The position numbers and the translations under genes are program-made. Positions 2,161-27,182 of a stretch of DNA of 64,000 nt are shown in pieces; the stretch's first letter is position 1, and each line of letters begins with the position of its first letter. The stretch is from Candidatus Omnitrophota bacterium (GTDB taxonomy: Bacteria > Omnitrophota > Gorgyraeia > B26-G9 > JBDRCZ01). The stretch is taken from contig JBDRCZ010000051.1 in assembly GCA_043821285.1 (NCBI GenBank), forward strand, positions 2,199 to 66,198. Direction: 5' to 3'. The notes under the pieces are model-generated. The model made no database searches, had not been told where the DNA came from, and saw only the letters and a program-made list of their open reading frames with translations.

Positions 2161-2318
2161 GACAATATGGCGGGGCATTTAAAGGAAAATAGCTGAAGAT
2201 CCCGCCTCGCCGACTGTGGGGAAATTATTTGTCAATAATTTTCCCACAGTCGGTGGGATAAATTCCGACGATATAAGTTACCGTGCTTAAGCACGGTAAC
2301 TTATATCGTCATTTAAAG
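2161..2318 (+). repeat. Structured intergenic element, copy A (hairpin units each followed by GGGATAAATTC / TCATTTAAAG boxes)
   Basis: A near-perfect palindrome ccgactgtggggaaatt...aatttcccacagtcgg is followed by gggataaattccgac. A second perfect palindrome gacgatataagttaccgtgctt/aagcacggtaacttatatcgtc is followed by atttaaag. The same architecture occurs at 17207, 19526, 22121 and 27053. Confidence 0.7.
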
Positions 2319-2412
2319 TTTGAAAACCGCAGGTTTTCATATGACAACCTGAACGAGCCAGAAAAACCCTGATGATGTTTGGTTCAGGCTCGTGTAGGTT
2401 GAGGAGGACAAA

Positions 2413-4035
2413 ATGAAGTTTTTTCGAAAAATGATATTTTTTTGGCAGCAGAGCTGGGTAATTATTGTGGTAATTACGGTAATTACCGGGTTGATTACCT
2501 GGGCAGTAATTGGCTTAACGTCTTTGGAGTCTTTTTACCGGAATCAAATATTGGCGACAATGCCGGTCTGGATGCTTATTGGGATATTCCAGGGGATTGC
2601 ATTTGTTACGATGTATTGGTTTATCTTGTATGGCGGATTTACAAAGATTACTTCAAAAAAGATTAAGGCAAGAGACATTAATATTCGGTTTGATGATGTG
2701 ATTGGAATTGAGCAGGCAAAAACAGAGGCTTGGGAAATGGTTGAGCTGATTAAGGACCGGGCAAAGCTTAAAAAGATTGGCGGTAAAATTCTGCGCGGGA
2801 TACTTATGGTTGGCCCCCCCGGATGCGGTAAAACTTATCTGGCAAAAGCTATCTCTACCGAAGCAAAAGTGCCTTTTTTAGCCATGGCCTCTAGTGAGTT
2901 TAATGAGGTTTTTGTTGGCGTGGGCGCAAGCAGAATAAGAAAATTATTCCGGCAGGCGCGCATGCTGGCTTATGCCCATGGGGCATGTATTATCTTTATT
3001 GACGAATTAGACGCGATTGGCCGGTCAAGAACTTTTAGTTTTTTAGGCGGAAGTGAAACAAATGCCACCCAGAACCAGCTGCTCGTGGAAATGGATGGTT
3101 TAAAAGAAAAAGATTATAATGTTATTGTTATCGGGGCAACTAATGCTGCAGAAAATGTGCTTGACCTGGCGCTGCTAAGACCCGGGAGATTTGACCGGAA
3201 GATTTATATCCACTTGCCTAATCTTGAAGGCCGGGAAAAATTGTTTCAATACTATTTAAGCAAGGTAAAATATGACCCTTCCATAGATATTGGGCGGCTG
3301 GCGCGTAAAGCCGTGTATAAAAGCCCGGCGGATATTGAAAATATCATCAAAGAAGCCGCGCTTATTGCCACGCGTTATAAGAAAGATATTGTCAGCTATA
3401 AAGAAATAACCGAGGCCATGGAACGTATTGATATGGGAATAAAACATAAGCGTAATCTTACCCCGCAGGAACGGGAGATGGTTGCTTATCACGAATCCGG
3501 ACATTTGTTAGTGCTTTATATATTGCATCCTACAGATGATGTGTTTAAAGCTTCAATTGTTTCAAGAGGCGCGGCTTTGGGAGTAGTGCATCATCAGCCG
3601 CGTGAAGAATTATTTACCTATAGCCGGGAAAGGGTACTCGCAGAAATAAAAGTTGCTTTAGGGGGATATATTGCCGAAAGACTGCAATGTGGGGTAACTT
3701 CTACCGGTGTTTCCAGTGATTTCAAACAAGCCATGCACTGGGCACATGATATGGTATGGATGTATGGTATGGGTATTGGCGGATATGTGGGTGATTATAC
3801 ACTTATCGATAAATCGGAGATTTCGGAAAAAATAAAAGAAAAATTGAATGAGGAAAGTAATCAGATTTTAAGGCAGTGTCTCAAAGAAGTAGAAGAGCTG
3901 TTAGTGCGGGAAAAGACACTGCTTGACCGATTTGCTAAGGAGCTGCTCGCCCGGGATGAGTTGGAATACGATGAAATCGAGGCAATTTTTGCGGAATATG
4001 GTAAAAGCAATATCCGCAGTAAAATTACGGTGTAA
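2413..4035 (+). CDS. FtsH-like membrane AAA+ ATP-dependent zinc metalloprotease (short N-terminal paralog)
   Basis: Two N-terminal TM helices. Walker A GPPGCGKT, Walker B IIFIDELD, second region of homology, and an HESGH zinc motif. Confidence 0.85.
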   Translation: MKFFRKMIFFWQQSWVIIVVITVITGLITWAVIGLTSLESFYRNQILATMPVWMLIGIFQGIAFVTMYWFILYGGFTKITSKKIKARDINIRFDDVIGIEQAKTEAWEMVELIKDRAKLKKIGGKILRGILMVGPPGCGKTYLAKAISTEAKVPFLAMASSEFNEVFVGVGASRIRKLFRQARMLAYAHGACIIFIDELDAIGRSRTFSFLGGSETNATQNQLLVEMDGLKEKDYNVIVIGATNAAENVLDLALLRPGRFDRKIYIHLPNLEGREKLFQYYLSKVKYDPSIDIGRLARKAVYKSPADIENIIKEAALIATRYKKDIVSYKEITEAMERIDMGIKHKRNLTPQEREMVAYHESGHLLVLYILHPTDDVFKASIVSRGAALGVVHHQPREELFTYSRERVLAEIKVALGGYIAERLQCGVTSTGVSSDFKQAMHWAHDMVWMYGMGIGGYVGDYTLIDKSEISEKIKEKLNEESNQILRQCLKEVEELLVREKTLLDRFAKELLARDELEYDEIEAIFAEYGKSNIRSKITV

Positions 4036-4081
4036 AAAATCGCACCAGGGGTCTCCACTGCGTATACCGGGGGGGAGATTT

Positions 4082-5344
4082 GTGCAAATAGCCGCGATAA
4101 TTATTGTTTTATCATTTTGTAAATGCGCGCCAGGGCCGACCTATCATCAAGATAAGATTGCCGAATCAATAAAAGAAATTTGCCGGAAAGAATACAATAT
4201 CAATGTGTGCGCAAAAATTATTGGTAAAACGATTGGCGTGTATATTCCCTTAGAGAGATTATTTGACGAAAACTTAAATATTGACCAGCAAATTTCGCAA
4301 AAAATCGATGATGTGATTTTAGGCACATCAAGAGTATTGCTCAGTTCCGATACCGAGCTTGATTTTTATCAGGTGGTTGCCGCGGATACGGCACAAATCG
4401 CCGCTGAACTGGTGATGATCCGTTATATTCCAGACATTAAAAAAATTTATTGCGGCAGTATCTCCCGCGATGAATATACCAAACGCATGCTCTGGGAGGT
4501 AAAGATAAATACCCAGATACTCGCGCGCAAAAGGGTGGAAGAATTGTTTCATATGATGCCGACGGGGAATAGTGATAAGATTATTGCGGATTTTTTTGTA
4601 CGAAAACCAAAAGTTAGTCTGGAGGCGATGATTTTTTTCCGGACGCTCAAAGAGTTAGCGATGAAAAAAAACATTGAATATAAGATTTTGAAAATTAAAT
4701 CGAGAGCAATTGATAAAAATAAAATACTGGTTTATTGCCGCGTATTTGAGGACTATACGCCAAAAACAGGATTTATGGATTATGATTTTTTGTCCCCGCG
4801 GCAATTTTATAACGAATATCTATCATTAGTCATGATAAACAGAGGCGCGGCGACAATTGACCAGATTTATTCCCTTTATCATCGAAGCGAAGGCCGTCAG
4901 ATTCGCCGCTTCCCGGACCAGTATATTACCATGAATAATATCGATGAATGGCTGGAGACAGATTTTGTTTTTTCCGATATGACCACCGGAGATTTTTTGG
5001 CGAAACAGATTTTGAAAAGAATAAAGGATGATTTAATCGAAAATTTTGAAGTTAGTTTTTTACAGGGATATTTTGATCAGGAGAAAAAGAACTTCATTTT
5101 TTTATTAAGCGCAAAAAGTAAAAAACCGGATCTTTTGTTTGGGGAAACCGGGATTAACCATGTTATCGATTTAATTAGTAATTTGTTATATAGTTATGAG
5201 TTTTCGGATTACCAGACGCTCTATCTAACGGATATTTCGGAAAATAAGGAATTAGTCATCAGCCGGGAAGATTTGGAACAGAGGGAATTAGATAAAATGA
5301 ATGTGATAAGGAAATTTTTTATAAAAAAAGGGAAAAAAAGATGA
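4082..5344 (+). CDS. Hypothetical lipoprotein-like protein (GTG start proposed at 4082)
   Basis: The ORF-track start at 3923 overlaps ftsH. A GGGGGAGA RBS precedes GTG 4082, which is followed by the hydrophobic IAAIIIVLSFCKC signal with a lipobox-like Cys. No recognisable domain. Confidence 0.5.
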   Translation: MQIAAIIIVLSFCKCAPGPTYHQDKIAESIKEICRKEYNINVCAKIIGKTIGVYIPLERLFDENLNIDQQISQKIDDVILGTSRVLLSSDTELDFYQVVAADTAQIAAELVMIRYIPDIKKIYCGSISRDEYTKRMLWEVKINTQILARKRVEELFHMMPTGNSDKIIADFFVRKPKVSLEAMIFFRTLKELAMKKNIEYKILKIKSRAIDKNKILVYCRVFEDYTPKTGFMDYDFLSPRQFYNEYLSLVMINRGAATIDQIYSLYHRSEGRQIRRFPDQYITMNNIDEWLETDFVFSDMTTGDFLAKQILKRIKDDLIENFEVSFLQGYFDQEKKNFIFLLSAKSKKPDLLFGETGINHVIDLISNLLYSYEFSDYQTLYLTDISENKELVISREDLEQRELDKMNVIRKFFIKKGKKR

Positions 5345-6297
5345 TTGTTGAAAAACCAACACGGGACGGATTTGGTGAGGGGCTTTTGGAATTAGGCGAA
5401 ACAAATAAGGATGTGGTAGTATTGACCGCGGATTTATCGGCTTCGGTAAGGGCACAATGGTTTATGGATAAATATCCCCTGCGCAGTTTTAAATTAGGGG
5501 TGGCCGAACAGGACATGATTGGCACGGCCGCGGGGCTTAGCCTTGGAGGCAAAATCCCATTTGCCGGTACATTTGGAGTTTTTGCCAGCGGCCGGGCATG
5601 GGATCAATTAAGGGTTTCGGTATGCTATATGAACCTGAATGTTAATATTGCCGCCAGCCATGGCGGTATTTCTGTAGGTGAAGACGGGGCAACGCATCAG
5701 GCGCTCGAAGATATAACGTTAATGCGTGCCTTACCGAATATGACGGTAGTTGTTCCTTGTGATGCTCTGGAGGCAAAAAAGGCAACTATTGCCAGTGCAA
5801 GTTATCCCGGACCGGTATATTTACGGCTGGGGAAACAAAAGGTTCCTTTTATGACTTCACCAGAGGCAATTTTTAACATTGGTAAGGCAGATATATTGCG
5901 GACGGGAAAGGATATAACAATTTTTGCCTGTGGTCTTATGGTCGCTGAAGCATTGAAAGCAGGGGAGTTATTGACCAAGAAAGGCATTGATGCGCGGATT
6001 ATTAATATGCATACCATAAGCCCGATAGATATTCAGGCGATAATCGATGCGGCTCAAGAAACCCGGGCCATTGTTACCATAGAAGAGCATAGTTTAACCG
6101 GAGGACTCGGGTCGGCGGTTGCCGAGGTTGTTGTCGAAAGGTGCCCGGTACCGATGAAAATGATTGGTATTCGATCGCAATTTGGCCAATCCGGCAAGCC
6201 GCTGGTTTTACTAAAAGAGTACGGCTTAACCGCCGAGGACATAAAAAATACGATCATTGGTTTTTTAGAGACGGTTAAACCGAATTATTCCCTGTAG
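5341..6297 (+). CDS. tktA_C: Transketolase, C-terminal (pyrimidine-binding) subunit
   Basis: Pyr and C-terminal transketolase domains (GLSLGGKIPF..., EDGATHQ, HTISPID). Its stop-start overlaps the upstream gene. Confidence 0.85.
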   Translation: MIVEKPTRDGFGEGLLELGETNKDVVVLTADLSASVRAQWFMDKYPLRSFKLGVAEQDMIGTAAGLSLGGKIPFAGTFGVFASGRAWDQLRVSVCYMNLNVNIAASHGGISVGEDGATHQALEDITLMRALPNMTVVVPCDALEAKKATIASASYPGPVYLRLGKQKVPFMTSPEAIFNIGKADILRTGKDITIFACGLMVAEALKAGELLTKKGIDARIINMHTISPIDIQAIIDAAQETRAIVTIEEHSLTGGLGSAVAEVVVERCPVPMKMIGIRSQFGQSGKPLVLLKEYGLTAEDIKNTIIGFLETVKPNYSL

Positions 6298-6317: not shown

Positions 6318-6941
6318 TTAATTTTTGATATTATCATAGAATATAGAGAATTTCTCACGAGCCTTGTTCTTTGTAAACTGCCAAGAGATTGTAATCTTTT
6401 TTTGGTTCCGTTGTTTTGTCCAAGGATAAACTTCATCGGCTAATTTTTTTATGTTTGCGATACGCCGGTCAAGACACTGCTTTGATAGCGCCGACAACTC
6501 AATCTCGGCCATATTCAGCCAGCTGGCTTTCTTGGGAGTATAGGCCATTTCAAAGCGTTGCGATAACACAAAGGTCTCAGGCGCGTCAAAAAGTTCGTAA
6601 AACGAAGAAGGATTATGCGTGTTAAGATTATCCTGAACCAAAATAATCTTATCGGCATCGGGATAATGTGACGCTACATCTTTCATAAAATCAGCATAAT
6701 CTTTCTTAGTCTTGCGTTCTGTGACTTTAACAATACGCTTACCGGCTAAAGGTTCAACAGCCATAAGCACAGCACATGTTCCGTTGCGCTCATAATGATA
6801 GTCCTGACGCTCAACGCATCCTGTTTTCATGGGAATTGGCATCATAACATCACCCAACAACTGACAGGGGCGTTCGTCAAAACAGACAACTGGCCTTTTC
6901 GGATTATAAGGTTGTTCATAAATGTCCAAAACCTGCTCCAT
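6318..6941 (-). pseudogene. IS630 transposase, C-terminal DDE fragment
   Basis: DDE_3-like motifs. It lacks its own N-terminal DNA-binding domain. Confidence 0.7.
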
Positions 6942-7120
6942 CCGCCAGAGATAATCGGCGGTGATGGTTGTAACACACCATTGTTTCTTTAGGTGAGGCT
7001 TAAGTTCGTTTTTTTAAAGTTCTCTCAATGGTTTTATAAGAAATGTTATTAACAAAATTTAACTTGGAATTCTCCGCCCCTTGGGGCGTGGAATGGCGAA
7101 GTTATAAAAAAAGTTCCTTA

Positions 7121-7558
7121 TTATCGGCGAAGCGTAGCGAAGTCGACGTGATGCCCCGCTCCCTTGGGGCGGGGAGAGTTCATTTCAACGACTTTATCGG
7201 CTAAAAGACGCAGACTCCACCTGCAGTGTTCTTGGGGAGCTTTTGAACATGCCAGGGCTGTAATCTGTGCCAGTTGCTTACCGCTGAACTTATTGGGGGC
7301 GCCAGGCCGAGGCTGTTCATATATTGCTGCATTAATTCCTTCTTTTGTATATCGCTGGCGTACTTGGCGAACGGTATTTCGGACTAATCCCAGCGCTTTG
7401 ATGATTCCGCTGTCAGTTTCGCCCTTATCCGCTAACAGTAATATTCGGCACCGAGTTAATGTGCGTGCTTTTTCTTTACCTTTTACCAAAGACCATGAGC
7501 TAGGCTTAAGGGAACAGAGCAATCTTTCAGCAGTCCCTTGAAGGTGTAGAAGACCCAA
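7121..7558 (-). pseudogene. IS630 transposase, N-terminal HTH fragment
   Basis: Transposase HTH_Tnp_IS630-like segment (LLLADKGETDSGIIKALGLVRNTVRQVRQRYTKEG). Confidence 0.65.
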
Positions 7559-7991: not shown

Positions 7992-8363
7992 TTAAGACAC
8001 CACAGTGTTGACGTTTAGCGCCGGCGTAGCTTTAGCAAAAGGCTTAGGAGAAGAAGTATCATCGATAACTAAGACGCCGGAGGAAGTAGCAGAAGTAGTT
8101 CTTTGATGTTCAATAATTTTTAACCTTATATTGTTAAGATCATTGCTACTCCATTTTGCTTCAGATAAGAAGTACTGACAAGCATGATAGTTGATTGGGG
8201 TTTTAGAGGCGAGGGCATAAAGGGAATTTCTCTTGTAGTCTTTAAACAAAGCATAGATAAGGAAGGAGAAAACGATAAATTGTTTTTTTGAGAAGGCAGG
8301 TTTAAAACGAAATAAGAAATTATTGATTACCGAAATAGTGAGATTAAAAATACCCATATCCAC
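7992..8363 (-). pseudogene. IS701/IS4-like transposase, N-terminal fragment; the remainder is decayed
   Basis: The N-terminal motif ACQYFLSEAKWSSNDLN resembles the IS701-family HxFLS(D/E)SPW box. No intact downstream DDE ORF lies between 7560 and 7990. Confidence 0.5.
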
Positions 8364-8565
8364 CTCCTGTTGTGTGTTACGGTAGTTTAGTTACAACTAT
8401 ATACCATAGCAGGAGTTGTGGATATTGTTAAGGGAAAAATTAACGTAACACATTGAAATTACATAAGTTATTAGTTTTCACGACTTACGTTAAAAGATTT
8501 TTTGAAAAAGCTTAAATTTTAACAAAGTACTAGAAGTACAGAAGGTACCACAGCTTATTTCCTAA

Positions 8566-8913
8566 GGGATTGAATGGAAAAAATCCTTATCTGAAATAAA
8601 AGATATAATAAAAACGGTATCGGTTTTTTCCAATACCGAAGGTGGAAGAATGCTAATTGGATTATCGGAAACAGGCACTGTTGCTGGTGTAGAAATTGGC
8701 AAAGGCACAATAGAAAACATTACCAATCTAATTTCACAGCATACTGAACCTAAAATCCATCCACGAATTATTGTAAAAACAACTGGCGGTAAGGATATCA
8801 TTATAATTGACGTAACAAAATCACATGACAGCCCTGTTTTAGCTGACGGAATTTCTTATATACGAGTTGGTAAGTCAAGCATGAAAATGTCGAAGCACGG
8901 AGAAAAACTTTAA
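8566..8913 (+). pseudogene. AlbA_2 (Schlafen-like, ATP-dependent DNA-binding) domain fragment, truncated at both ends
   Basis: The in-frame stretch SEIKDIIKTVSVFSNTEGGRMLIGLSETGTVAGVEIG matches the AlbA_2 N-terminal consensus. It has no start codon upstream (stop at 8563) and ends after about 115 codons. Confidence 0.5.
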
Positions 8914-9157
8914 TTGCTTTTTTTAAGAACAAATCAGATAAATTGCATGTATTAATTACTACGGCGTATTAATAAAACTGTTTCAATACACAATACACAA
9001 TACTCAATACAATCTTCTAAACGACACGGCGGGCAGGCGATACAAAAAAATAAAATAAAATTATCACACAGAGGCACAGGGCACACGGAGAAAAACGTTT
9101 GAACTACGTATTGCGGATTTTGTGTAAAAACAGATAAGAAGAGAATAAAAGGAAAAA

Positions 9158-10480
9158 ATGCTATTAAAAGTATGGGTAGCAATTATATTAGTTATGACAA
9201 TTGTGGCAAGTACGGTTTTTTGTGCTGAAAGGATAGATGTTAGCCAATTAGAAGAGCAGAGCGAGATTTATTTTAGCCGGGATGACTATGATGGGTTTAT
9301 AGAGTATTTAAACAGCATAGATATAACAAAGGAAAACATATTAGCTGCCTATCGTAACTATTATCTGGCATTAACCTATATGAAAAAAATAGAATATTTG
9401 GACAAAAGAGAGGATTGGGAACGTTTTTATAAAGTCAAAGGTAAATATTGCAAAGAGGTTTCTAATCTTACTATACAGTTTTCATCATTGTCCGCATCTG
9501 AGGAATTAATTATTGATTTTTTATATCTAAATTGGGCTATCCATGAAAAAGCCGAATATCGAGAATATGCCGCTCAAGCATTTACGAAACTAAAGAAAAG
9601 ATTATTTGACTATGCAATTAGTACCGGTGATTATAAAAAACTTAAAGAAATAGCTGATCGAATAGAGTCAGAAATTGGTGGGAATTTTTCTTCGAAATTT
9701 TTTCAGAAATATATTATGCAGCTTGTTAAAGTGGATGATTATAATAAGGTATTTGCAATAATATTTTCTTTTTCCAAAGAACGGTTTGAAAAGTCCGACT
9801 TTACTGCTTCAAGTTTTGCAGATGAGAAATTATTGGAATTGTCACAACAAATTTATGATATAGATAAACAGATTAGTTTAGCAAATAGTATCGCAGAAAA
9901 GTATTTAGATCGCAATGAATTTTATTATTATGATTCATTTTATAGGCAGTACTTAACTTTACTCTTAAAAAAAGGGAAGGAAGAAGAATTCTATAATGCT
10001 GTACAAAAGGCTATTGATGTATTTGATAGTTCACCGACAAGAAATTCCCAACTGGCAAGAATATATTATAGTATGCTTTTAAATCACACCCCCAAAGAAT
10101 CAGTCTCTTTTACTGTTCTTTATGCCTCAGCTCGTGCTTCGTTGAGGTCAGGAGAATTTGAGGAAGCAATAGGGGAATTTGGGGAAATTATAGAACTTTT
10201 CCCTTCGCACAAAAATATTGCCGATTGCTACTTTCAGATTGCAAACGCTTATTTTTATCTTGAAAAATATGAAAAGGCTGCTGAAAATTTATCAATTATT
10301 GTTGAAAAATTCCCTGAAACAAGTATAGCGGAAGAGGCATTATATTTACTTGGTATTGCAAAAATAAAAGAGAAAAAATATTCCGATGCCTTACACAACT
10401 TTGAAAATTTTTTAATAATATATCCCGAAAGTGTTAGAAATGATAAAGTAATGAAAAAGGTTATGGAGATAAAAAAGTGA
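9158..10480 (+). CDS. Secreted TPR-like repeat protein
   Basis: N-terminal signal peptide. C-terminal TPR-like helices (YFQIANAYFYLEKYEKAAENL...). Confidence 0.55.
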   Translation: MLLKVWVAIILVMTIVASTVFCAERIDVSQLEEQSEIYFSRDDYDGFIEYLNSIDITKENILAAYRNYYLALTYMKKIEYLDKREDWERFYKVKGKYCKEVSNLTIQFSSLSASEELIIDFLYLNWAIHEKAEYREYAAQAFTKLKKRLFDYAISTGDYKKLKEIADRIESEIGGNFSSKFFQKYIMQLVKVDDYNKVFAIIFSFSKERFEKSDFTASSFADEKLLELSQQIYDIDKQISLANSIAEKYLDRNEFYYYDSFYRQYLTLLLKKGKEEEFYNAVQKAIDVFDSSPTRNSQLARIYYSMLLNHTPKESVSFTVLYASARASLRSGEFEEAIGEFGEIIELFPSHKNIADCYFQIANAYFYLEKYEKAAENLSIIVEKFPETSIAEEALYLLGIAKIKEKKYSDALHNFENFLIIYPESVRNDKVMKKVMEIKK

Positions 10481-11283: not shown

Positions 11284-11297
11284 TGCAAAAAATATAA

Positions 11298-11540
11298 ATG
11301 AAGAATAATAACAAAATTACAGAAACGGTTATTTTTATTTTAGCATTTATTTTTATTCAGATAATACAGTTAAATAAAAGTTTTCAAGATTTATTTACTC
11401 AATATTTGTCTAAAAATAAAGATAGAAGTAAACAAGAAACCATTGAGTCAATTCGTGTTATTTTAACTTTGTCTGGAGTAAATGCTGCGATAAGTAAAAG
11501 CAGTGGTTGCGGCATGGCTGCAGATTGTATTGGATGTTAG
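11298..11540 (+). CDS. Small membrane-anchored Cys-rich protein; C-terminus GCGMAADCIGC
   Basis: 80-aa ORF with an N-terminal TM helix. It overlaps the start of the SPASM gene by 34 nt in another frame. Coding status is uncertain. Confidence 0.3.
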   Translation: MKNNNKITETVIFILAFIFIQIIQLNKSFQDLFTQYLSKNKDRSKQETIESIRVILTLSGVNAAISKSSGCGMAADCIGC

Positions 11541-12560: not shown

Positions 12561-12583
12561 TATTTGGTATTATTTAACAAGTT

Positions 12584-17206: not shown

Positions 17207-17279
17207 TAAACTGGCGGATTAAATTCCGACAAATAATTTACATCGCCTATAGCTCTGTAAATTATGTCGTTATTTAAGG
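17207..17279 (+). repeat. Structured intergenic element, copy B (upstream of glmU)
   Basis: Hairpin atccgcc-taataaact-ggcggat, then taaattccgac, then a second hairpin cgacaaataatttaca.../tgtaaattatgtcg, then ttatttaagg. Confidence 0.7.
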
Positions 17280-17314
17280 TAGATGGCAAAATTAGTGCCG
17301 AAGGCAATAATTTT

Positions 17315-19511: not shown

Positions 19512-19525
19512 GGAATAATTTTAAT

Positions 19526-19647
19526 ATCCCACCTCGCAGATCGTGAGGAAATTCTTGATTAATAATTTCCTCCACGCTCGGTGGGATAAATTCGCACACA
19601 TAAGTAATGTCGCTTTACAGCGGCATAACTTATGTGCTCATTTAAAC
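19526..19647 (+). repeat. Structured intergenic element, copy C (upstream of rplY)
   Basis: Outer stem atcccacc...ggtgggat, then aaattcgcac, then the hairpin gcacacataagtaatg.../...cataacttatgtgc, then tcatttaaac. Confidence 0.7.
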
Positions 19648-19686
19648 TTTGAAAACCGTAGATTTTTAAATGACCCGCCAAAAGAC

Positions 19687-20388
19687 ATGGCGGGGGAGGA
19701 TATTGTCGTGGAAAATGTGGTGCTTAAGGCAGAAGAGAGGGAGATTACCGGAAAGTCGACAGTTAAAAAACTTCGGCAGAGGTCTAAGGTTCCGGCGGTT
19801 ATTTACAGAAAAGGCAAAACTGGCGCGAATGTTTTTGTGGACAAAAAAGATGTTTTAAAGGTTTTGCATACTAAAGCGGGTGAAAATGTCCTGATTAATC
19901 TAGAAATTATGGATGCAGATAAGGATAAGAATAAAACAGTTATTATTAAAGAAATTCAGCATGATCCGATAACTAGAGAGATGTTGCATATTGATTTTTA
20001 TCAGATAAGTCTGACGGAACGTATAAAAATAAATGTTCCTTTGATGGTAAAAGGAGATGCCCCGGGAATTAAAGAAGGCGGTATTTTGGAACATGTAATA
20101 CGGGAAGTGGAGATTGAGTGCTTGCCGACAAAGATTCCGGAAAGTATTGATATTGATGTTTCAAATATGAATATTGGTGATGTTATGCATTTAAAGGACA
20201 TAGCTTTGCCAGTAGATCTGCATGTGCTTACAAACTTAGAACAGGTAGTTGTTTTAATTAAGGCGCCGGTTGAAGAAAAGGCAGCAGAAGAAGCGGTGAT
20301 CACAGAAGCAGCACCAGCAGAGCCGGAAGTAATAAAACAAAAGAAGCCAGAAGCAGCGGCTGAAGGTGAAACCAAAGAAGAAAAATAG
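19687..20388 (+). CDS. rplY: 50S ribosomal protein L25 / general stress protein Ctc (long form)
   Basis: The L25 N-terminal domain (KVPAVIYRKGK...) plus the Ctc C-terminal domain and an acidic/Lys tail. The internal ATG is preferred (MAGEDIVV...). The exact coordinate may be off by one: my reading of the printed sequence at about 19680 disagrees with the ORF track by one base. Confidence 0.8.
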   Translation: MAGEDIVVENVVLKAEEREITGKSTVKKLRQRSKVPAVIYRKGKTGANVFVDKKDVLKVLHTKAGENVLINLEIMDADKDKNKTVIIKEIQHDPITREMLHIDFYQISLTERIKINVPLMVKGDAPGIKEGGILEHVIREVEIECLPTKIPESIDIDVSNMNIGDVMHLKDIALPVDLHVLTNLEQVVVLIKAPVEEKAAEEAVITEAAPAEPEVIKQKKPEAAAEGETKEEK

Positions 20389-20421
20389 CAAATTAGTGTC
20401 GCAGACAATAATTTGATTTAT

Positions 20422-20976
20422 ATGAAAATATTGATTGGGCTGGGGAATCCGGGGATTGCTTATAAAGATACCCGGCATAACATTGGCTTTAGAATTATTG
20501 ATAATTTTGCCCAGAGACATAAGTTTTTGTTGAAAAAAAGAAAGTTTAGAAGTATTATTTTAGAAGGGAATAGCTGTAATCAGAAAGTACTACTGGTTAA
20601 AGCCCAGACATTTATGAATTTGAGCGGGGAGGCAGTGCGAGCAGTAGTATCATTTTATAAAATTGTTCTTGAAGAGATGCTCGTAATATGCGATGATAGC
20701 GCCTTGCCGCTGGGGAAAATACGTTTGCGTAAAAAAGGCAGTGCCGGGGGACACAAGGGAATCATTTCGATAATTGAAAATATTCATAGCAATAACTTCC
20801 CGCGCCTTAGAGTAGGTATTGGCCGGCCCCGGGACCGGAACATGACAAATTATGTACTGCAGCCTTTTGAAAAGGAAGAAAAAAAAACGGTTGAGACGGC
20901 AATTAACCTGGCAACTGATGCGATAGAGTTGTGGATTGAATTAGGCATAACTGAGGTAATGAATACATATAACTAA
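20422..20976 (+). CDS. pth: Peptidyl-tRNA hydrolase
   Basis: MKILIGLGNPG...RHNIGF signature. Confidence 0.9.
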   Translation: MKILIGLGNPGIAYKDTRHNIGFRIIDNFAQRHKFLLKKRKFRSIILEGNSCNQKVLLVKAQTFMNLSGEAVRAVVSFYKIVLEEMLVICDDSALPLGKIRLRKKGSAGGHKGIISIIENIHSNNFPRLRVGIGRPRDRNMTNYVLQPFEKEEKKTVETAINLATDAIELWIELGITEVMNTYN

Positions 20977-21057
20977 AAACGATAAAATCCTAAGCACGAA
21001 TATCGAAATCCGAGTGTAGGTAATTCTTGACCGACCGGTATGGGGGGGTAAAAAGTA

Positions 21058-21348
21058 ATGAAAAGTTATGAAGCAATGTTTATAATTTCTACGCAACTGG
21101 ATAAAGACGCATTAAGTAATGCAATTACGCAAATCAATGAGCTAATCACAAAAAACAGCGGGATTATAGAAAATACGCAAAACTGGGGAAGACGGTCGCT
21201 TTCGTTTAAAATAAAGAAAAGGCATGAGGGGGTATATTATTTAGTAAATTTCAAAATTTCACCGGATGAAATTTCTAAGCTCAATGCGCAATATCGATTG
21301 AAAGAATTCATTTTACGCCATACGATTTTTGCGGCACAAAAATCATAA
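21058..21348 (+). CDS. rpsF: 30S ribosomal protein S6
   Basis: MKSYEAMFII..., S6 family. Confidence 0.85.
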   Translation: MKSYEAMFIISTQLDKDALSNAITQINELITKNSGIIENTQNWGRRSLSFKIKKRHEGVYYLVNFKISPDEISKLNAQYRLKEFILRHTIFAAQKS

Positions 21349-21405
21349 GTCATATAATCTACAGCCGTTTTAATCAGGCTAAAAAACAGAAAGGAGAGAA
21401 ATAAA

Positions 21406-21834
21406 TTGGCAAGTCTTAATAAGGTGTTTTTGATTGGTAACCTGACCCGTGATCCGGAACTGCGTTATGTTCCGAGTGGTACCGCGGTCACAACGTTTTC
21501 TATAGCCGTAAACCGTGTATTTACACAACAGAACGGAGAACGTAAAGAAGATGTGTGTTTTATCCGGATCGTTGCATGGGGAAAGCTGGCGCAAAGCTGT
21601 GGTGAATATTTAAATAAAGGAAGTTCTGTTTTTATTGAAGGACGGCTGCAAAACCGCAGCTGGGAAGCAGGAGACGGTACGAAACGTTCAACAATGGAAG
21701 TTATTGCCCAGCGGGTACAATTTCTCGATCGGGTAAAACAAACCTCCACGGGAAGCAATGCGGAGATGGCCATGGATGAAGACACAGAACCAATGGAACC
21801 AGTATCTGCTCCTGATGAGACTGTGCCATTTTAA
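21406..21834 (+). CDS. ssb: Single-stranded DNA-binding protein
   Basis: OB-fold N-terminus NKVFLIGNLTRDPELRY, and an acidic C-terminal tail ending DETVPF. Confidence 0.9.
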   Translation: MASLNKVFLIGNLTRDPELRYVPSGTAVTTFSIAVNRVFTQQNGERKEDVCFIRIVAWGKLAQSCGEYLNKGSSVFIEGRLQNRSWEAGDGTKRSTMEVIAQRVQFLDRVKQTSTGSNAEMAMDEDTEPMEPVSAPDETVPF

Positions 21835-21866
21835 ACTTGATTATTCCCTATAGCTTGATAGAGGGT
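21831..21866 (+). terminator. Repeat-family terminator-like element (TTAAACTTGATTATTCCC plus hairpin)
   Basis: ttaaacttgattattccc followed by ccctatagcttgatagaggg. Paralogs at 40711 and 47401 have the same conserved flank with different, compensating hairpin sequences. Confidence 0.55.
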
Positions 21867-21881
21867 GATCTTTTGGATGGA

Positions 21882-21909
21882 AAGTTTGAAAACCTACGGT
21901 TTTCAAATG
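21882..21909 (+). repeat. Palindromic unit AAGTTTGAAAACC-N3-GGTTTTCAAATG
   Basis: Other copies at 2316-2342, 40788-40815 and 45760-45788, and a degenerate copy at 19645-19675. Confidence 0.7.
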
Positions 21910-22000
21910 GATAAAAAATTTCCGGTGCTGCATTGCCTCATCAGCTTGGCAAAATACCCTGTAGTCTTGCTACAGGGATGGTCAAGCTGAAGGAAATTTT
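21906..22000 (+). repeat. ~95-bp intergenic repeat family, copy 2
   Basis: Matches 12466-12560. Contains the hairpin ccctgtagtcttgctacaggg. Confidence 0.7.
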
Positions 22001-22120
22001 TTATTTATTATTTTTACTGCGCAAAAATAAGCATTTATAAGCAAAGCGGATAAAAAAAGACGAAGCGCAAATATTAAATACCCCGCCAAAATACCGAAGA
22101 TCCGCCGAAGTATTAGTGGT

Positions 22121-22231
22121 GGACATGGCGGGTCATTTTAAGGAACTAAGCTGAATATCCCCCCAGTTTTCTAACGAAAACAAGACGGAGGGATAAATTC
22201 GCCCGCCCAAAAGCATGGCGGGCTCATTTAA
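22121..22231 (+). repeat. Structured intergenic element, copy D (upstream of rpsR)
   Basis: ggacatggcgggtcattttaaggaa...atcccccc...ggagggat, then aaattcgcccgcc, then hairpin gcccgcc/ggcgggc, then tcatttaagagaggg. Confidence 0.7.
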
Positions 22232-22246
22232 GAGAGGGTTGGTTAA

Positions 22247-22498
22247 ATGGCGAGAGTCGTGAAGAAAAATAAAAAGCTGGATATGATCCGAAGAAGACCA
22301 AGAAGTTGCAGATTGTGTATAGAGAAAATAAATGCGATGGATTATAAAGATCATACCAGGCTGCGGAAGTTTATCAACGAACGCGGAAAGATTATCCCGA
22401 GCCGTATATTTGCAACCTGTGCAAAACACCAAAGAATGTTAGCCCGAGCGATTAAACGTGCAAGATTTATGGCGCTGTTGCCTTATACTAACGAATAA
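22247..22498 (+). CDS. rpsR: 30S ribosomal protein S18
   Basis: [10 protein letters not shown]...DYKD...LRKFI conserved S18 core. Confidence 0.85.
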
Positions 22499-22680
22499 AA
22501 TTTTATTCGTTTGCCTGCGGCTGTGCAGAGAGTAGAAGCGGCAGTGATAATTGATGCAAAAGAGATTTTTAAATTCCCATAACCTGCCTTTTTTTCTTTT
22601 GGCATACCTTTTCTTTTCTAAAGAAAAGGTAGTGGATAGATTAGTGCCTTCGGCACTAATCTATGAGGTGATGATTTATT

Positions 22681-23130
22681 ATGATAAAGATAATCTTAAG
22701 AGAAGATATTAAGAGCTTAGGCAAACGTGGTGAAATTTTCAATGTCCGGGACGGCTATGTGCGTAATTTTCTTATTCCCAGAGGATTGGCTTATGAGGCG
22801 ACCGATGCGAATGTGCGTTCTTTTGAACAGCACAAGAGGCTGGAAGAAGTCCGTCTGACGAGCGAGAAGAAAAATGCCGAACGTCTTGCCAATAAACTGA
22901 TGAACGTTTCTTGTACCGTGATAATGAACGCGACCAGTGATGATAAACTATTCGGTGCGGTTACCGCAAAAGATATTGCCGCTGCTCTCGAGCAACAGGG
23001 CAATATCCTTATTGACAGAAAATTAATCTGCCTGGACTCTCCAATCAAAGAACTTGGTGTGTTTCATGTTCCGGTAAAATTACATCCGGAGTTTACGCAA
23101 ACCATAAAAGTTTGGGTTGTGAAAAAATGA
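22681..23130 (+). CDS. rplI: 50S ribosomal protein L9
   Basis: MKIILREDIKSLGKRGEI...VRNFLIPRGLA. Confidence 0.9.
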   Translation: MIKIILREDIKSLGKRGEIFNVRDGYVRNFLIPRGLAYEATDANVRSFEQHKRLEEVRLTSEKKNAERLANKLMNVSCTVIMNATSDDKLFGAVTAKDIAAALEQQGNILIDRKLICLDSPIKELGVFHVPVKLHPEFTQTIKVWVVKK

Positions 23131-24488
23131 ACGGTAATTTTTCCACGGTGCAGAATGCAGTTTTAGATAAAGTCCCGCCGCAGAATGTTGAGGCAGAGGC
23201 AGCGGTTTTAGGCTCGATGCTTTTGGAAGAGAGCGCAATTGGCATAGCTATTGAACTGCTTAGCGAAGGTTCTTTCTATAATGATGCCCACCGAAAAATA
23301 TTTGCAACAATCAGTAAAATGTATAATGCCAACCAGGCCGTTGATATTGTAACGTTATCAGAATGCTTGCGGCAGGGAAGTATTTTAGAAAACGTGGGCG
23401 GGGCGATGTATCTCACCCATCTGGTTAATTCCATTCCTACAGCAGCAAATGCAGCCCACCATGCAAAAATTATAAAAGAAAAAGCGATCTTGCGTAATTT
23501 AATTTCCGCGGCGACCCAGATTGTTTCTGAGAGTTTTGAAAGTCATGCCGATGCCGCAAGCATGCTTGATAAAGCTGAGCGGTTGATTTTTGATATTGCC
23601 TCCTCCAAAATAAAAGGCGGATTTGTCAATATCAAGGAAATAATTAAAAATAGTATCGAAGCAATAGAAAGTCTTTACCAGAAAAAAACGTATGTTACTG
23701 GTGTGCCTACTGGATTTTATGATTTAGATGTTATGACCGCCGGGCTTCAACCTTCGGATTTTATCGTTGTTGCCGGAAGACCATCAATGGGCAAAAGTGC
23801 ATTAGTTGCGAATATCATTGAGCATGTTGCCGTAGTCGAACATATGCCGGTTGCCGTTTTTAGTATCGAGATGTCCAGAGAACAATTAGTTCAGAGAATA
23901 CTTTGTTCTCATGCCCGGGTAAATATGCAGAATGTAAGAACCGGATATCTTGCCGAAAGGGAATGGGGTAATCTGGTCAATTCCGCCAGTAAATTATCAA
24001 TGGCGCCAATATTTATCGATGATACTCCGGCGATCAACGTCTTAGAATTAAAGGCAAAGGCAAGAAGATTAAAATCACAGCATGATATAAAACTTGTGGT
24101 ATTGGATTATATGCAATTAATGCAGGCCGCGGTATTTGTCCAGAGTCGTCAACAGGAGATTGCCGACATTTCCCGTTCCCTGAAATCTTTGGCAAAAGAA
24201 CTGAATGTCCCGATGGTTGCGGTAAGCCAGTTATCACGCGCTCCGGAACGCCGCGAAAACTTTCGCCCCCGATTGTCAGATTTGCGGGAATCAGGAGCAA
24301 TTGAACAGGATGCAGATGTAGTAATGCTTTTGTTTAGAGAGGAATATTATAACCCCACGCCGGAAAATAAGGGAATTGCCGAGGTGATAATTGCCAAACA
24401 AAGAAATGGTCCGGTGGGAACAAAAAACATGTCTTTTTTAAAAGAATTTAGCCGTTTCGAAAGCATATCTACTAGGGAGAAAACTTAA
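23127..24488 (+). CDS. dnaB: Replicative DNA helicase
   Basis: DnaB N-terminal domain (PQNVEAEAAVLGSML), Walker A GRPSMGKSAL, RecA-like C-terminal domain. Confidence 0.9.
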   Translation: MNGNFSTVQNAVLDKVPPQNVEAEAAVLGSMLLEESAIGIAIELLSEGSFYNDAHRKIFATISKMYNANQAVDIVTLSECLRQGSILENVGGAMYLTHLVNSIPTAANAAHHAKIIKEKAILRNLISAATQIVSESFESHADAASMLDKAERLIFDIASSKIKGGFVNIKEIIKNSIEAIESLYQKKTYVTGVPTGFYDLDVMTAGLQPSDFIVVAGRPSMGKSALVANIIEHVAVVEHMPVAVFSIEMSREQLVQRILCSHARVNMQNVRTGYLAEREWGNLVNSASKLSMAPIFIDDTPAINVLELKAKARRLKSQHDIKLVVLDYMQLMQAAVFVQSRQQEIADISRSLKSLAKELNVPMVAVSQLSRAPERRENFRPRLSDLRESGAIEQDADVVMLLFREEYYNPTPENKGIAEVIIAKQRNGPVGTKNMSFLKEFSRFESISTREKT

Positions 24489-24489
24489 T

Positions 24490-26781
24490 ATGCTGACCAG
24501 TATGGGAGGTAAAAAATTTTTCATTTGTCTTGCGATGTTGATTATTGTTTCATTTTGTACCTGCGGGCTTGCAGATGAGCCGGGGGGGGCAAAAAAAATT
24601 ACCGCGGTTCTGGTAGTGAATAATCAGGCAGTTAGTACACAGGCAATATTATCTAAAGTGCGTATCCGTACCGGACAAGAGTTTTTACCCGCGGCTTTAA
24701 GCGAGGATATAAAAAAATTATATGCTACTGGTTATTTTTCTGAAGTAAGCGTAGATATCGAAGATTATGAACAGGGGGTTAAAATTACGTTTATCGTTAA
24801 GGAAAAACCAGTGCTTGATGAGATAGTATTTTCAGGAAATAAAAAATTCCATCGACGCCGATTGAACGAAAAGATACAATGCCGGATTGGAACTTTTGTT
24901 AATCAGCAGCAATTAAAGGCTGATCAGAAAAGACTTTCTGATTTTTATAATAATCAGGGATACCCGCACAATTCTGTGCATTATCAGGTTGAGGTTAATC
25001 AGGATACGAACCGTGCGGTCGCTACATTTGTGATTGATGAGGGCACGCATGTTAAGATAAAAAGGATGGAGTTAAGCGGTAATTTGGCATTTAAGACTGG
25101 CAGGATTTTGAAGATAATTAAAACCAAAAAGGCCTGGCTTTTTGGCCGGGGGTATTTTCAGGAAGACACATTTCAGGAAGATATGGAGCGGATAAGATCG
25201 TTTTACCGCGAAAATGGTTTTTTGGATGTTGCCGCTGATTATAGCATTGAATACCAGAAAAAAGACCGGTTAATGATCATTAAAATTAAAATTGCAGAAG
25301 GCAAAAAATATGTTACGCGCAAGATTAGTTTTTCTGGAAATAAAATTATTGCCGGTGACTTGCTTCTTGAACAATGTGCGCTTAAACCCGGGTCAGCATA
25401 TGGACAGGAATTATTAAGGGGAGATATTTCTCGCATTCAGGGGTATTATTTTGGCAAAGGATATATTTATGCACGGATTAAAGTAGATACGTATTTAGAC
25501 CCTGAAACCGGCAGTGTTGATATTAGTTATAATATCGAAGAGGGTGAAATAGCTCATGTAGATAAAATAGAAGTTAAAGGAAATACGCGTACCCGGGATA
25601 TTATAATAAGACGTGAACTGCGGCTGGTGCCGGGAGATAGATTTGACGGAGATAAACTGCAGCGCAGTAGAGAAAGAATTCAGAATCTTGGTTATTTTGA
25701 AGAGGTAAGTTTTGATACTGAGGCAACGGATGAAAAAAATAAAGAGAAATTGATTGTTAATGTAAAAGAGACGAAGACCGGAGAGTTTAGTTTTGGTGCG
25801 GGGTATAGCTCGTTAGACAAATTTGTTGGTTTTTTTGATATTTCCCAGAAAAATTTTGACATCACGAATTTTCCTAATTTTACCGGCGGCGGACAGCTTT
25901 TGCGTGCCCGGGCGGAATTTGGCACGACAAAGAAAGATTATGACCTTGACTTTACCGAACCCTGGCTTTTTAACCGTCCGATATCAGTGGGTTTTGCGGC
26001 TTATCAGCGTTCGCGGGAATGGGAACAATATGACCAGGAACGTAAAGGTTTTGACTTGCGTTTTGGCAAGGAGTTTGATGAGTATTTAAGAGGTGATATT
26101 GGCTACCGTAATCAAAATGTTAAAATTTATAATTTTGACGAAGGGGTGTCGGGGGAAATTCGAATGGAAGAAGGAAAGAATATGATTAGCGCGCTTTCCC
26201 TTTCGGTAACTTATGATAAGAGAGATAATGTATTTGAACCCACGCGCGGCTATTTGCGTAGTGCAACCTTTGAAGTTGCCGGCGGCATGTTTGGCGGAGA
26301 TAAGGATTTTCTGAAATATACTGCCTACCATAGCTGGTATTTTACGCAATTCGAAAAGATTGTGCTGGAGATTAAACTAAGAGGCGGATATATGACGACT
26401 TATGATGATAGTCCGACTATTCCGATATATGAACGATTTTATGCTGGAGGCGCAAGTACATTACGTGGATTTAAAGACCGCCGGGTTGGTCCGATAGATT
26501 CTGCCGGTGACCCGGTTGGGGGAAAAATGATGTTTATGGCCAATGTGGAATATCTTTTTCCATTAGTAAATAATATCAAATGGGCAATCTTTTATGATAC
26601 CGGGAACGTATGGGATTCTTTAGATCATGCCGAGTTTGGGGATTTACGTTCCAGTGTGGGAGCAGGAATACGTTTGAAAACGCCGGTTGGCCCGATAAAA
26701 TTTGATTATGGCTTTGTCCTTGACCATAAAGAAGGCGAGGCGAGGACTAGACCGCATTTCAGTATGGGTTATGCTTTTTAG
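24490..26781 (+). CDS. bamA: Outer membrane protein assembly factor BamA
   Basis: Signal peptide, multiple POTRA repeats, C-terminal Omp85 beta-barrel ending in aromatic ...GYAF. Confidence 0.9.
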   Translation: MLTSMGGKKFFICLAMLIIVSFCTCGLADEPGGAKKITAVLVVNNQAVSTQAILSKVRIRTGQEFLPAALSEDIKKLYATGYFSEVSVDIEDYEQGVKITFIVKEKPVLDEIVFSGNKKFHRRRLNEKIQCRIGTFVNQQQLKADQKRLSDFYNNQGYPHNSVHYQVEVNQDTNRAVATFVIDEGTHVKIKRMELSGNLAFKTGRILKIIKTKKAWLFGRGYFQEDTFQEDMERIRSFYRENGFLDVAADYSIEYQKKDRLMIIKIKIAEGKKYVTRKISFSGNKIIAGDLLLEQCALKPGSAYGQELLRGDISRIQGYYFGKGYIYARIKVDTYLDPETGSVDISYNIEEGEIAHVDKIEVKGNTRTRDIIIRRELRLVPGDRFDGDKLQRSRERIQNLGYFEEVSFDTEATDEKNKEKLIVNVKETKTGEFSFGAGYSSLDKFVGFFDISQKNFDITNFPNFTGGGQLLRARAEFGTTKKDYDLDFTEPWLFNRPISVGFAAYQRSREWEQYDQERKGFDLRFGKEFDEYLRGDIGYRNQNVKIYNFDEGVSGEIRMEEGKNMISALSLSVTYDKRDNVFEPTRGYLRSATFEVAGGMFGGDKDFLKYTAYHSWYFTQFEKIVLEIKLRGGYMTTYDDSPTIPIYERFYAGGASTLRGFKDRRVGPIDSAGDPVGGKMMFMANVEYLFPLVNNIKWAIFYDTGNVWDSLDHAEFGDLRSSVGAGIRLKTPVGPIKFDYGFVLDHKEGEARTRPHFSMGYAF

Positions 26782-26973
26782 TTAGCCGAACAAAGGTAGT
26801 GTCAAAAATAAAATGAAATAAACCACAGAGAGCACAGAGGGGGAGGGGTAAGATTACACGGTAAGTGTTTTATTCTCAAGTAGCTCTGTGTCCTCTGTGG
26901 TTAAGTATATGACAGAACCCGAACAAAAAAAGGAGGATGTGATGTTAGTAGAAAACCGAAGTTAAACTTTGTC

Positions 26974-27002
26974 TTGACCGTAAGTAGTTGTTGTGCTATA
27001 AT
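26974..27002 (+). promoter_or_regulatory. Sigma-70-type promoter candidate (TTGACC-17 bp-TATAAT)
   Basis: ttgacc gtaagtagttgttgtgc tataat. Consensus hexamers with the optimal spacer, about 190 bp upstream of skp and just ahead of repeat copy E. Confidence 0.5.
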
Positions 27003-27052
27003 TAAGTGAAATTCCCTTGCCAAAAAATTGAAAATCCGCCAGTGTTTTGTGG

Positions 27053-27182
27053 AGGACATGGCGGGGTCATTAAAGGAAGCTGCTTAATATCCGCCTAACA
27101 AACTGGCGGGTTAAATTCGCAGACGGACATAGTCCTACAATTTACGAAGTTTACACCCCGTAAATTGTCTGCTCATTTAAGG
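27053..27182 (+). repeat. Structured intergenic element, copy E (5' leader of skp)
   Basis: ggaggacatggcggggtcattaaaggaa; hairpin atccgcc-taacaaact-ggcggg, then ttaaattcgcagac, then the hairpin gcagac...caatttacg/cgtaaattgtctgc, then tcatttaaggagg with its RBS, then GTGATG. Confidence 0.7.

Follow-up and report, generated by a model that had tools for sequence, protein, structure and literature searches.

The 64,000-nucleotide stretch analysed here (contig JBDRCZ010000051.1 of a Candidatus Omnitrophota bacterium, positions 2,199 to 66,198; hereafter the window) carries, in five intergenic regions, an element composed of two hairpins that are joined and closed by short conserved boxes. These five elements are probably copies of a dispersed mosaic palindromic repeat, conserved across Omnitrophota and functionally closest to REP (repetitive extragenic palindromic) sequences and BIMEs (bacterial interspersed mosaic elements), to ERIC (enterobacterial repetitive intergenic consensus) sequences and to BOX elements. 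The family is previously undescribed. The original prediction, made from the letters of the window, had proposed either functional 5' leaders of an ftsH-like gene, glmU, rplY, rpsR and skp or a structured family of MITEs (miniature transposable elements with inverted repeats). The elements are not gene-specific regulators of these five genes; how they spread and which role they may have in RNA are matters that we infer. Omnitrophota are uncultured and mostly ultra-small, and their non-coding DNA is essentially unstudied.

Architecture, covariation and distribution of the element

Reading the five regions with their coordinates, we found the predicted architecture in all of them. Hairpin 1, with the feet ATCC(N)CC and GG(N)GG(G/A)T, leads into the junction GG(G/A)(A/T)TAAATTC (box A), which is followed by hairpin 2 and by the end box (T/C)(C/T)ATTTAA(A/G) (box B). 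All parts of the five copies lie on the + strand, and the flanking genes are those originally named: the genes for the transketolase N-terminal subunit and the ftsH-like protein at copy A, glmU at copy B, prs and rplY at copy C, ssb and rpsR at copy D, bamA and skp at copy E.

Copy A, between its two genes, consists of a long hairpin 1 (2199-2259), the junction GGGATAAATTC (2255-2265), a perfect 20-bp hairpin 2 (2266-2308) and the end box TCATTTAAAG (2309-2318). Copy B (17197-17278) lies upstream of glmU (start 17315); its short hairpin 1, ATCCGCC/GGCGGAT (17197-17219), begins 10 nt before position 17207, where the prediction had placed the start of a region whose architecture it described correctly, and is followed by the junction GGATTAAATTC (17216-17226), a hairpin 2 with the phylum consensus AATTTAC/GTAAATT (17227-17269) and the end box TTATTTAAG (17270-17278). 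Copy C (19526-19646), between prs (stop 19511) and rplY (GTG 19708), again has a long hairpin 1 (19526-19587), the junction GGGATAAATTC (19583-19593), a hairpin 2 with a 2-nt bulge on its 5' arm (19594-19637) and the end box TCATTTAAA (19638-19646). Both hairpins are short in copy D (22157-22232), situated between ssb and rpsR (ATG 22247): hairpin 1 (22157-22194) and hairpin 2, GCCCGCC/GGCGGGC (22201-22223), are separated by the junction GGGATAAATTC (22190-22200), and the end box TCATTTAAG (22224-22232) continues into the ribosome-binding site. Copy E (27089-27181), between bamA and skp (GTG 27190), has a short hairpin 1 (27089-27111), the junction GGGTTAAATTC (27108-27118), a hairpin 2 whose internal loop carries an inserted mini-hairpin of 12 nt (27119-27172) and the end box TCATTTAAG (27173-27181), which continues into GGAGG. 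All copies fold as two adjacent hairpins, with z-scores of folding energy of -14.8, -6.4, -8.1, -4.4 and -4.8 for A to E and a minimum free energy of -72.9 kcal/mol for copy A.

An extra unit, described in the original prediction at the start of several copies, is found as GGCGGG(G)(T)CATTTAAAGGAA ahead of copies A, D and E, at 2169-2187, 22127-22145 and 27060-27078, joined to the copy by a linker of 10-11 nt. The upstream unit of copy A (2161-2198, +) contains GGCGGGGCATTTAAAGGAA at 2169-2187 and the linker aatagctgaag, and can be read as the foot of a hairpin 1-like hairpin fused to a copy of box B, a derivative devoid of hairpin 2. Before copy D (22083-22156, +) we find a hairpin ATCCGCC...GGCGGGT (22100-22133), TCATTTTAAGGAA and the linker ctaagctgaat; before copy E (27016-27088, +), a hairpin ATCCGCC...GGCGGGGT (27034-27067), TCATTAAAGGAA and the linker gctgcttaat. 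Directly upstream of this last unit lies a sigma-70-type promoter-like site (26974-27002, +), recognised by consensus match only, with TTGACC, 17 nt and TATAAT with preceding TG (11 of 12 consensus matches). Should it be active, the 5' untranslated region of skp would include copy E.

A covariance model (R1) was seeded with 45 copies from other genomes plus window copies A and C and run over the window with filters off. It returned five matches, all on the + strand, namely C (65 bits), B (55.5), A (55.3), D (39) and E (35.1), the next-best match in the window reaching 17.8 bits. Since copies B and E were outside the seed and lack exact boxes, they are independent confirmations of the family. 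By themselves the short boxes show no significant enrichment in the window; what decides is their combination with the hairpin.

Covariation of the stems, claimed in the original prediction, was examined by structural alignment. In 89 copies aligned to the model, 97.9% of stem cells are paired, compared with 78.3% after shuffling. Double-sided changes occur at 16 of 17 pairs (299 cells), none of 500 shuffles reached the observed values, and controls in which the pairing was slid gave 20-46% pairing. This alignment was fitted to the model; an alignment made with MAFFT yields the same picture. The stems covary strongly, as had been claimed, and the elements form a genuine family rather than a product of random duplication.

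The boxes, which the prediction took to be single-stranded, turned out to be paired. UAAAU of GGGAUAAAUUC pairs with AUUUA of UCAUUUAA at the base of hairpin 2 (RNAalifold, 47 copies). Above this A-U helix of 5-6 bp between the two boxes, the stem continues with an internal loop, UC/UC, a helix of 4 bp and an asymmetric internal loop (about 3 nt on the 5' side, 1 nt on the 3' side). A helix of 8 bp, AACUUAYG/CRUAAGUU, carries the free tip, and the end box TCATTTAA closes the unit. The two boxes themselves covary in 25 copies without exact boxes (TTCAAT/ATTGAA, TGACAT/ATGTCA, TAAGT/ACTTA, TTTAAT/ATTAAA), so that the helix between them is real and TTAA is part of the element. Hairpin 1, with the feet NTCCC.../...GGGAT, exists in a short form of 18-30 nt and a long form of about 58 nt; the latter has an AAAATT/AATTTT apical stem and is common to several species, including window copies A and C. 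With a junction GGGATAAATTC of 11 nt and about 62 nt for hairpin 2 and its boxes, a complete unit measures 80-125 nt.

Nearly all pairing is maintained by Watson-Crick changes. Only about 1.5% of paired cells are G.U, which is atypical for selection at the RNA level in a secondary structure supported by covariation. Which way the adjoining genes are read does not alter the difference in folding energy between the strands (p = 0.48), and the side of the asymmetric internal loop is set by the element and not by the transcript. The scarcity of G.U and the transcription-independent folding energy point to complementarity being maintained at the DNA level.

The search of other genomes that the original prediction had called for showed that the architecture recurs across Omnitrophota metagenome-assembled genomes (MAGs). 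Species-representative genomes, one per species, were scanned for GGGATAAATTC-N20-50-TCATTTAA, which gave at least 120 loci. About half of the loci listed match by chance, with no fold and scores of 24-31 bits; the remainder show the complete architecture, (AG)ATCCC-hairpin 1-GGGATAAATTC-hairpin 2-TCATTTAA, which occurs in more than 60 other genomes, mostly Omnitrophota. With model R1 we counted at least 86 copies at 35 bits or more in 64 loci, and 22 of the 86 are extra to the copy that brought in each locus. There are up to six copies per 8-kb stretch (locus L034), and several also in L080, L082, L008 and L019. After removal of one ascertained copy per locus, the 64 loci still hold about 47 further copies per Mb.

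According to the taxonomic labels of the MAG records, the positive loci outside Omnitrophota comprise Planctomycetia/Planctomycetales contigs, one Deltaproteobacteria contig and three Bacteroidota contigs. The last three, labelled Bacteroidetes bacterium, Flavobacterium sp. and Algibacter sp. (L027:5080-5132, L043:3300-3360 and L093:812-874), score 42-58 bits and have their own hairpin 2 consensus, and in all three the stop codon of the gene on the opposite strand overlaps with box B. They may reflect either true presence across phyla or mis-binning. Viral contigs gave chance-level matches only (24-28 bits), plus one borderline match at 37.6 bits. Among Rfam models, only a tRNA reached the gathering threshold in the window, and copies C and D had no match at E <= 10. 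The literature searched does not describe the family, and the words repeat, intergenic and palindrom are not present in the 2023 phylum-wide survey of Omnitrophota genomes.

Placement of the elements at gene boundaries

Save for overlaps with the ends of open reading frames (ORFs), the copies lie between ORFs, and the two ends of the element meet them differently. An ORF begins or ends flush with the TCATTTAA end in 58 of 83 cases and with the hairpin 1 end in 8 of 42 (Fisher p = 6e-8). When the downstream gene is on the same strand, its start codon lies -17 to +15 nt from the TCATTTAA end in 28 of 41 cases, often in the arrangement TCATTTAA-AGGAGG-N-ATG. When the gene is on the opposite strand, its stop codon falls within the box in 30 of 42 cases; box B reads TTAAATGA on that strand and supplies TAA (overlap 4) or TGA (overlap 8). 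Nine of ten opposite-strand neighbours tested gave Pfam matches typical of ordinary cellular genes (FtsW/RodA, sigma-70, aldolase, L,D-transpeptidase, outer-membrane efflux protein, aminotransferase, PheS, DnaJ and porin), and in several of them the domain extends to the last residues. Some copies abut tRNA genes (L070:2536-2597, L090:6723-6783, L032:7741-7803), the adjoining sequence reading as the reverse complement of a tRNA 3' end (GGTTCGAACCC-type).

One gap could be compared between two species with flanks 83-88% identical. Both keep the element between fabG and acpP; the boxes and the lower stem of hairpin 2 are conserved, with a single compensatory change of T-A to C-G, and hairpin 1 and the tip of hairpin 2 are wholly different, as if swapped.

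Such placement would suit a host-maintained RNA punctuation, in which an endoribonuclease cuts in GGGAUAAAUUC and leaves each cistron with a protective terminal hairpin, the roughly symmetric design working in both orientations. The phylum-wide conservation of the boxes, the hairpin 2 types common to species, the retention between fabG and acpP, the integrity of the elements although their spacers to ORFs are gone, the position of copy E downstream of a strong promoter-like site and the high stability of the hairpins all agree with it. AAAUU and GAAUU in the joint also resemble what we take to be the RNase E preference, RN|WUU. Selection on a transcript fits poorly, however, with G.U pairs at only 1.5% and with the absence of any strand asymmetry that follows transcription. 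The internal loop and the order of the two hairpins are fixed relative to the element, so antisense transcripts show the mirror-image structure, and the joint itself is partly paired with box B. As the main explanation of the family we consider such host-maintained punctuation unlikely.

The leader interpretation, according to which each element is a cis-regulatory RNA that senses a protein or ligand and controls the ftsH-like gene, glmU, rplY, rpsR or skp, fares much worse. It had in its favour that all five window copies precede a start codon on the coding strand, that AGGAGG and ATG follow immediately after about a third of copies phylum-wide, that covariation is strong and that the promoter-like site lies upstream of copy E. 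The coding-strand placement holds for five of five (two-sided p = 0.06), but nearly all window genes are on the + strand. The running of the elements into ribosome-binding sites, said to be usual, holds for copies D and E only: copies A and C precede another repeat module and copy B ends 37 nt short of the glmU start. In the 83 copies with a callable neighbour, 41 have the same orientation as the downstream gene and 42 the opposite one (binomial p = 1), and in the 30 opposite-strand cases mentioned above the element holds the stop codon of that gene. The adjoining genes are functionally unrelated, conservation is confined to the nucleotides of a helix and a 2x2 loop, which do not make a binding pocket, and no Rfam match was obtained.

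Orthologous gaps tell the same. The window organism has no close relatives in the collections: its BamA, identical to a protein of a Candidatus Omnitrophota MAG, stands in a cluster of one member, and the best metagenome relatives of its L25 are only about 50% identical. Locus L129 (L25 46% identical) nevertheless shares with the window the order prs-rplY-pth-rpsF-ssb-rpsR-rplI-dnaB-bamA. Its gaps prs-rplY (19 nt) and ssb-rpsR (31 nt), occupied by copies C and D in the window, have no element, whereas its dnaB-bamA gap of 330 nt carries one and that of the window measures 1 nt. Operons that are otherwise syntenic have gained and lost the family at different gaps. Orientation, orthology, scarcity of G.U and strand-neutral folding together refute a gene-specific 5' leader, and we regard the reading as highly improbable. 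Of the observations that the original prediction named as refuting it, the lack of orientation bias (41/42) was made; the positions, flush with ORF ends, are nevertheless not random, and covariation is very strong.

Mosaic arrangement and surroundings of the elements

Units occur singly, as direct tandems (the extra units before copies A, D and E) or as inverted dimers that share hairpin 1. In L072, L082 and L019 two units share one hairpin 1 and form a symmetric element of three hairpins; such dimers have the symmetric ends TTAAATGAG...CTCATTTAA. In L034, head-to-head pairs lie between co-directional genes with a TCATTTAA end turned towards each ORF boundary, an arrangement that is frequent. 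Variants of hairpin 2 are shared between genomes almost as much as within them (0.555 vs 0.528, permutation p = 0.09), and thus give no sign of recent lineage-specific bursts. Concerted evolution within genomes, which we considered, is by the same values weak or absent.

A structured repeat comes much nearer to the truth than a leader, yet a MITE in the formal sense, that is, a non-autonomous derivative of an insertion sequence (IS) moved by a DDE transposase, such as the IS630-like one of the window, has very little probability. The elements are multi-copy, intergenic, present in both orientations and differently positioned in relatives, the inverted dimers have symmetric ends, and an IS630-type transposase remnant (6318-7558) is present in the window. 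The single units, which are the great majority, have neither terminal inverted repeats nor target-site duplications. The conserved stretch reaches (AG)ATCCC on the left and TCATTTAA on the right, the left end (AG)ATCCC and the right end GCTCATTTAA are not mutually complementary, and the flanks of the 44 copies with defined ends share nothing. Copies within a genome are highly diverged and yet have perfect stems. A TTAA or TTTAA target with duplication was rejected on these unshared flanks and on the covariation of box B with box A, which assigns TTAA to the element and not to a duplicated target.

As to the remnant, the transposase ORFs lie on the - strand at 6318-6941, 7121-7558 and 7992-8363: IS630-type DDE_3 and HTH_32/HTH_23 domains are found in two ORFs 179 nt apart, with a short DDE_5 fragment near them. 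Clear terminal repeats of the remnant were not found; its ends do not resemble the element, and a link between the two was rejected. Strand-specific insertion of the IS200/IS605 type was rejected as well, orientation relative to GC skew being unbiased (49 vs 42), with skew confounded with gene strand (rho 0.86).

The remaining candidates can be dismissed briefly. Folded single-strand recombination sites of the attC or Xer/lox kind, marking gene cassettes, are the least probable of the explanations weighed here: the elements resemble attC in shape (basal helix, unpaired central spacer, second helix with unpaired bases on one arm, variable tip), in conserving structure while sequence varies and in holding ORF stop codons, but they lack the RYYYAAC/GTTRRRY core and have instead a basal helix (T)TAAAT/ATTTA(A) with TC/TC loops, no integrase was found in the window, they occur in both orientations inside one operon, and the genes that flank them (prs, rplY, ssb, rpsR, bamA, skp, fabG, acpP, pheS, dnaJ and similar) form syntenic housekeeping operons rather than cassettes. 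Intrinsic terminators were rejected: no hairpin of an element was called in a scan of 16900-27400, and the tail is UCAUUUAA, devoid of a U tract. No conserved -35/-10 pair within the element speaks for a promoter. An idea of DNA-uptake sequences, prompted by a pilin of the window, was abandoned because the 11-mer is confined to the elements. Resemblances to the H-NS site tCGATAAATT, the loxP arm ATAACTT, Nus boxA CUCUUUAA and the slippery heptamer UUUAAAU were noted, and we do not rely on any of them.

The pilin in question is a minor pilin (40321-40710) with a weak match to ComP_DUS, the type of the DNA-uptake-sequence receptor (E = 1.5e-7); it adjoins a type IV pilus cluster with pilM, pilO, secretin, pilB and pilC at 32906-40127.

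Other repeats surround the elements. A module with a AAAGTTTGAAAACCGYAGGTTTTCAWATGAC hairpin is fused to the end of copy A (2316-2346, +), follows copy C (19645-19674) and occurs alone at about 21876, 40783 and 45754. The repeat family to which it belongs, with the hairpin module AAAGTTTGAAAACCGTAGGTTTTCAAATGAC/GGA, was delimited at 2297-2345, 19626-19674, 21876-21923, 40770-40830 and 45741-45801. Two more hairpin families, AATCTTCCCCTCCGCTTGCGGAGGGG... and ACACGGAAAATGCAGCACATTTTCCGG, lie just past gene ends and are often adjacent to each other (27668-27734, 32711-32749, 40130-40196, 42095-42133, 45604-45643, 47406-47444 and 55101-55140). A composite repeat upstream of glmU, rplI and lpxA (17147-17313, 22589-22664, 30243-30320) consists of a T-rich tract, a hairpin ACCTTTTCTTTTTAAGAAAAGGT and then AAATTAGTGCCGAAGGCAATAATTT, which runs into the start codon; copy B, at glmU, has it on either side. 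Intergenic repeats of two copies, 54-85 nt long and 79-81% identical, were found at 26833-26917 and 40211-40295, at 12473-12531 and 21913-21971, and at 41986-42039 and 57536-57589, some of them with CACAGAGG- or ACACGGAT-type motifs. In other genomes, widespread short repeats with GTCATTGCGAGGAGCCGAAGGCGACGAAGCAATC-like and GTCATTCCCACGAAAGTGGGAATC-like hairpins occur just upstream of the elements of L002, L018, L098 and L071. The intergenic DNA of the window reads as a mosaic of modules, and such a patchwork seems to make up much of the DNA between genes in this MAG.

Two further regions of the window deserve mention. The transketolase N- and C-terminal subunit genes (1336-2160 and 5341-6297) are 3.2 kb apart, and the gap holds copy A, a 540-aa FtsH-like protein (AAA and peptidase M41 domains) and an overlapping 473-aa ORF without Pfam match. 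Around tRNA-Gln (14147-14220), the stretch 8000-17000 has a low GC content (0.33-0.36 vs about 0.40-0.42) and contains a Schlafen/AlbA_2 fragment and several ORFs without Pfam match. An N6/N4 DNA methylase gene (14713-15855) is followed there by a 384-aa ORF without match (15859-17013); together they may form a restriction-modification pair located on an island that was acquired.

Maintenance of the elements and comparison with known repeats

What might maintain a dispersed palindromic repeat of this kind? The invariant base of helix and loop, the asymmetric loop fixed relative to the element and the scarcity of G.U suggest a protein that recognises one folded strand independently of transcription. 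Invariant boxes, fixed shape, types common to dozens of species and the fusion of one end to start or stop codons, taken together rarely seen in a small repeat, imply that the recognising machinery is conserved. Complementarity and the signature of boxes and shape would be maintained at the DNA level, and a structure-specific protein would recognise one folded strand and copy or homogenise the units; our leading guess for this protein is a HUH/RAYT-like or recombinase-like enzyme (RAYT, REP-associated tyrosine transposase). We give this mechanism somewhat less than an even chance. If the elements are co-transcribed, the two very stable rods and their A/U-rich joint could in addition act as cistron punctuation in either orientation, protecting upstream 3' ends and downstream 5' ends or offering a processing site. 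To such an added or exapted role we give about the same chance, or slightly less.

A more specific version, which we hold to be rather doubtful, is that the family is no junk and that a dedicated structure-specific enzyme installs, copies or homogenises hairpin modules exactly at ORF boundaries, as a system conserved in the phylum of which the repeats would be the visible half. On one folded strand the enzyme would recognise the basal A-U helix together with the UC/UC loop and the internal loop that is asymmetric. If true, we would be dealing with a new class of element borne by hairpins or with a host system of gene punctuation, working without terminal inverted repeats or target duplications, with types common to species, and might extend to Flavobacteriia.

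Several observations weigh against a dispersed repeat. No protein that would mobilise or recognise the elements was found by a motif scan of the ORFs of the loci or by Pfam scans of the window proteins; in particular, the scan for HUH/Y1 (RAYT) motifs found none in the ORFs of 68 element-bearing loci, a coverage too small to exclude such a protein. Near-identical copies, target duplications and terminal inverted repeats are absent, and recent transposition is not demonstrated. The sharing of hairpin 2 variants is unlike that of REP or MITE families amplified in bursts and fits long-term functional constraint. Retention of the element between fabG and acpP, together with intact elements flush with ORFs, suggests purifying selection and some host function. 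Finally, most loci were ascertained by the exact-box pattern, and ORFs were called mechanically, so that gene calls are crude.

Whatever maintains them, the elements have practical consequences. By supplying stop codons and adjoining ribosome-binding sites, they affect gene calling and operon prediction in MAGs, and they could mislead searches for riboswitches and leaders, as they display textbook covariation without gene-specific regulation. They also offer a handle for finding the maintaining enzyme.

Among known repeats, the REPs and BIMEs of proteobacteria, which have RAYT transposases, share with the Omnitrophota elements that they are extragenic, multi-copy, stable imperfect palindromes arranged as mosaics, with alternating or tandem units and conserved linkers, often within operons and in either orientation; in both, the stem has a conserved asymmetry, which suggests that a folded strand is recognised. 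REPINs are resembled by the inverted dimers with a common hairpin 1. The differences are also clear. REPs are palindromes of 20-40 nt, whereas the Omnitrophota units are longer (80-125 nt) and have two hairpin types; no GTAG/CGTC head is seen in their alignments, and no RAYT was found in the 68 loci or the window proteins, a small coverage. Boxes are conserved phylum-wide here and within a genus in REPs, the Omnitrophota stems are far more diverse, and one end is flush with ORFs and often provides the stop codon.

ERIC sequences, also named IRUs (intergenic repeat units), are imperfect palindromes of about 100-130 nt found in transcribed intergenic regions of enterobacteria and vibrios in either orientation. 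Like the Omnitrophota elements, they are conserved across genera, and their chromosomal positions differ between species. Sequences are unrelated, however, and ERIC consists of one long hairpin whose ends are MITE-like, with TA duplication, in contrast to two or three hairpins with junction boxes and without terminal inverted repeats or target duplication.

Comparison with attC sites repeats the likeness in structure conserved over sequence, in the series of basal helix, spacer, one-arm unpaired bases and variable tip, and in internal stop codons; the Omnitrophota elements differ by lacking R''/R' cores, an integrase and cassette context and by lying in both orientations in housekeeping operons. 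BOX elements of Streptococcus pneumoniae (PMC3049150) are modular, being composed of boxA, repeated boxB and boxC. BOX and the Omnitrophota elements are both modular, stably folding and intergenic, with a mechanism of spread that is unexplained; they differ in sequence and in the logic of their modules, and BOX is limited to a species group, whereas the elements described here are spread phylum-wide.

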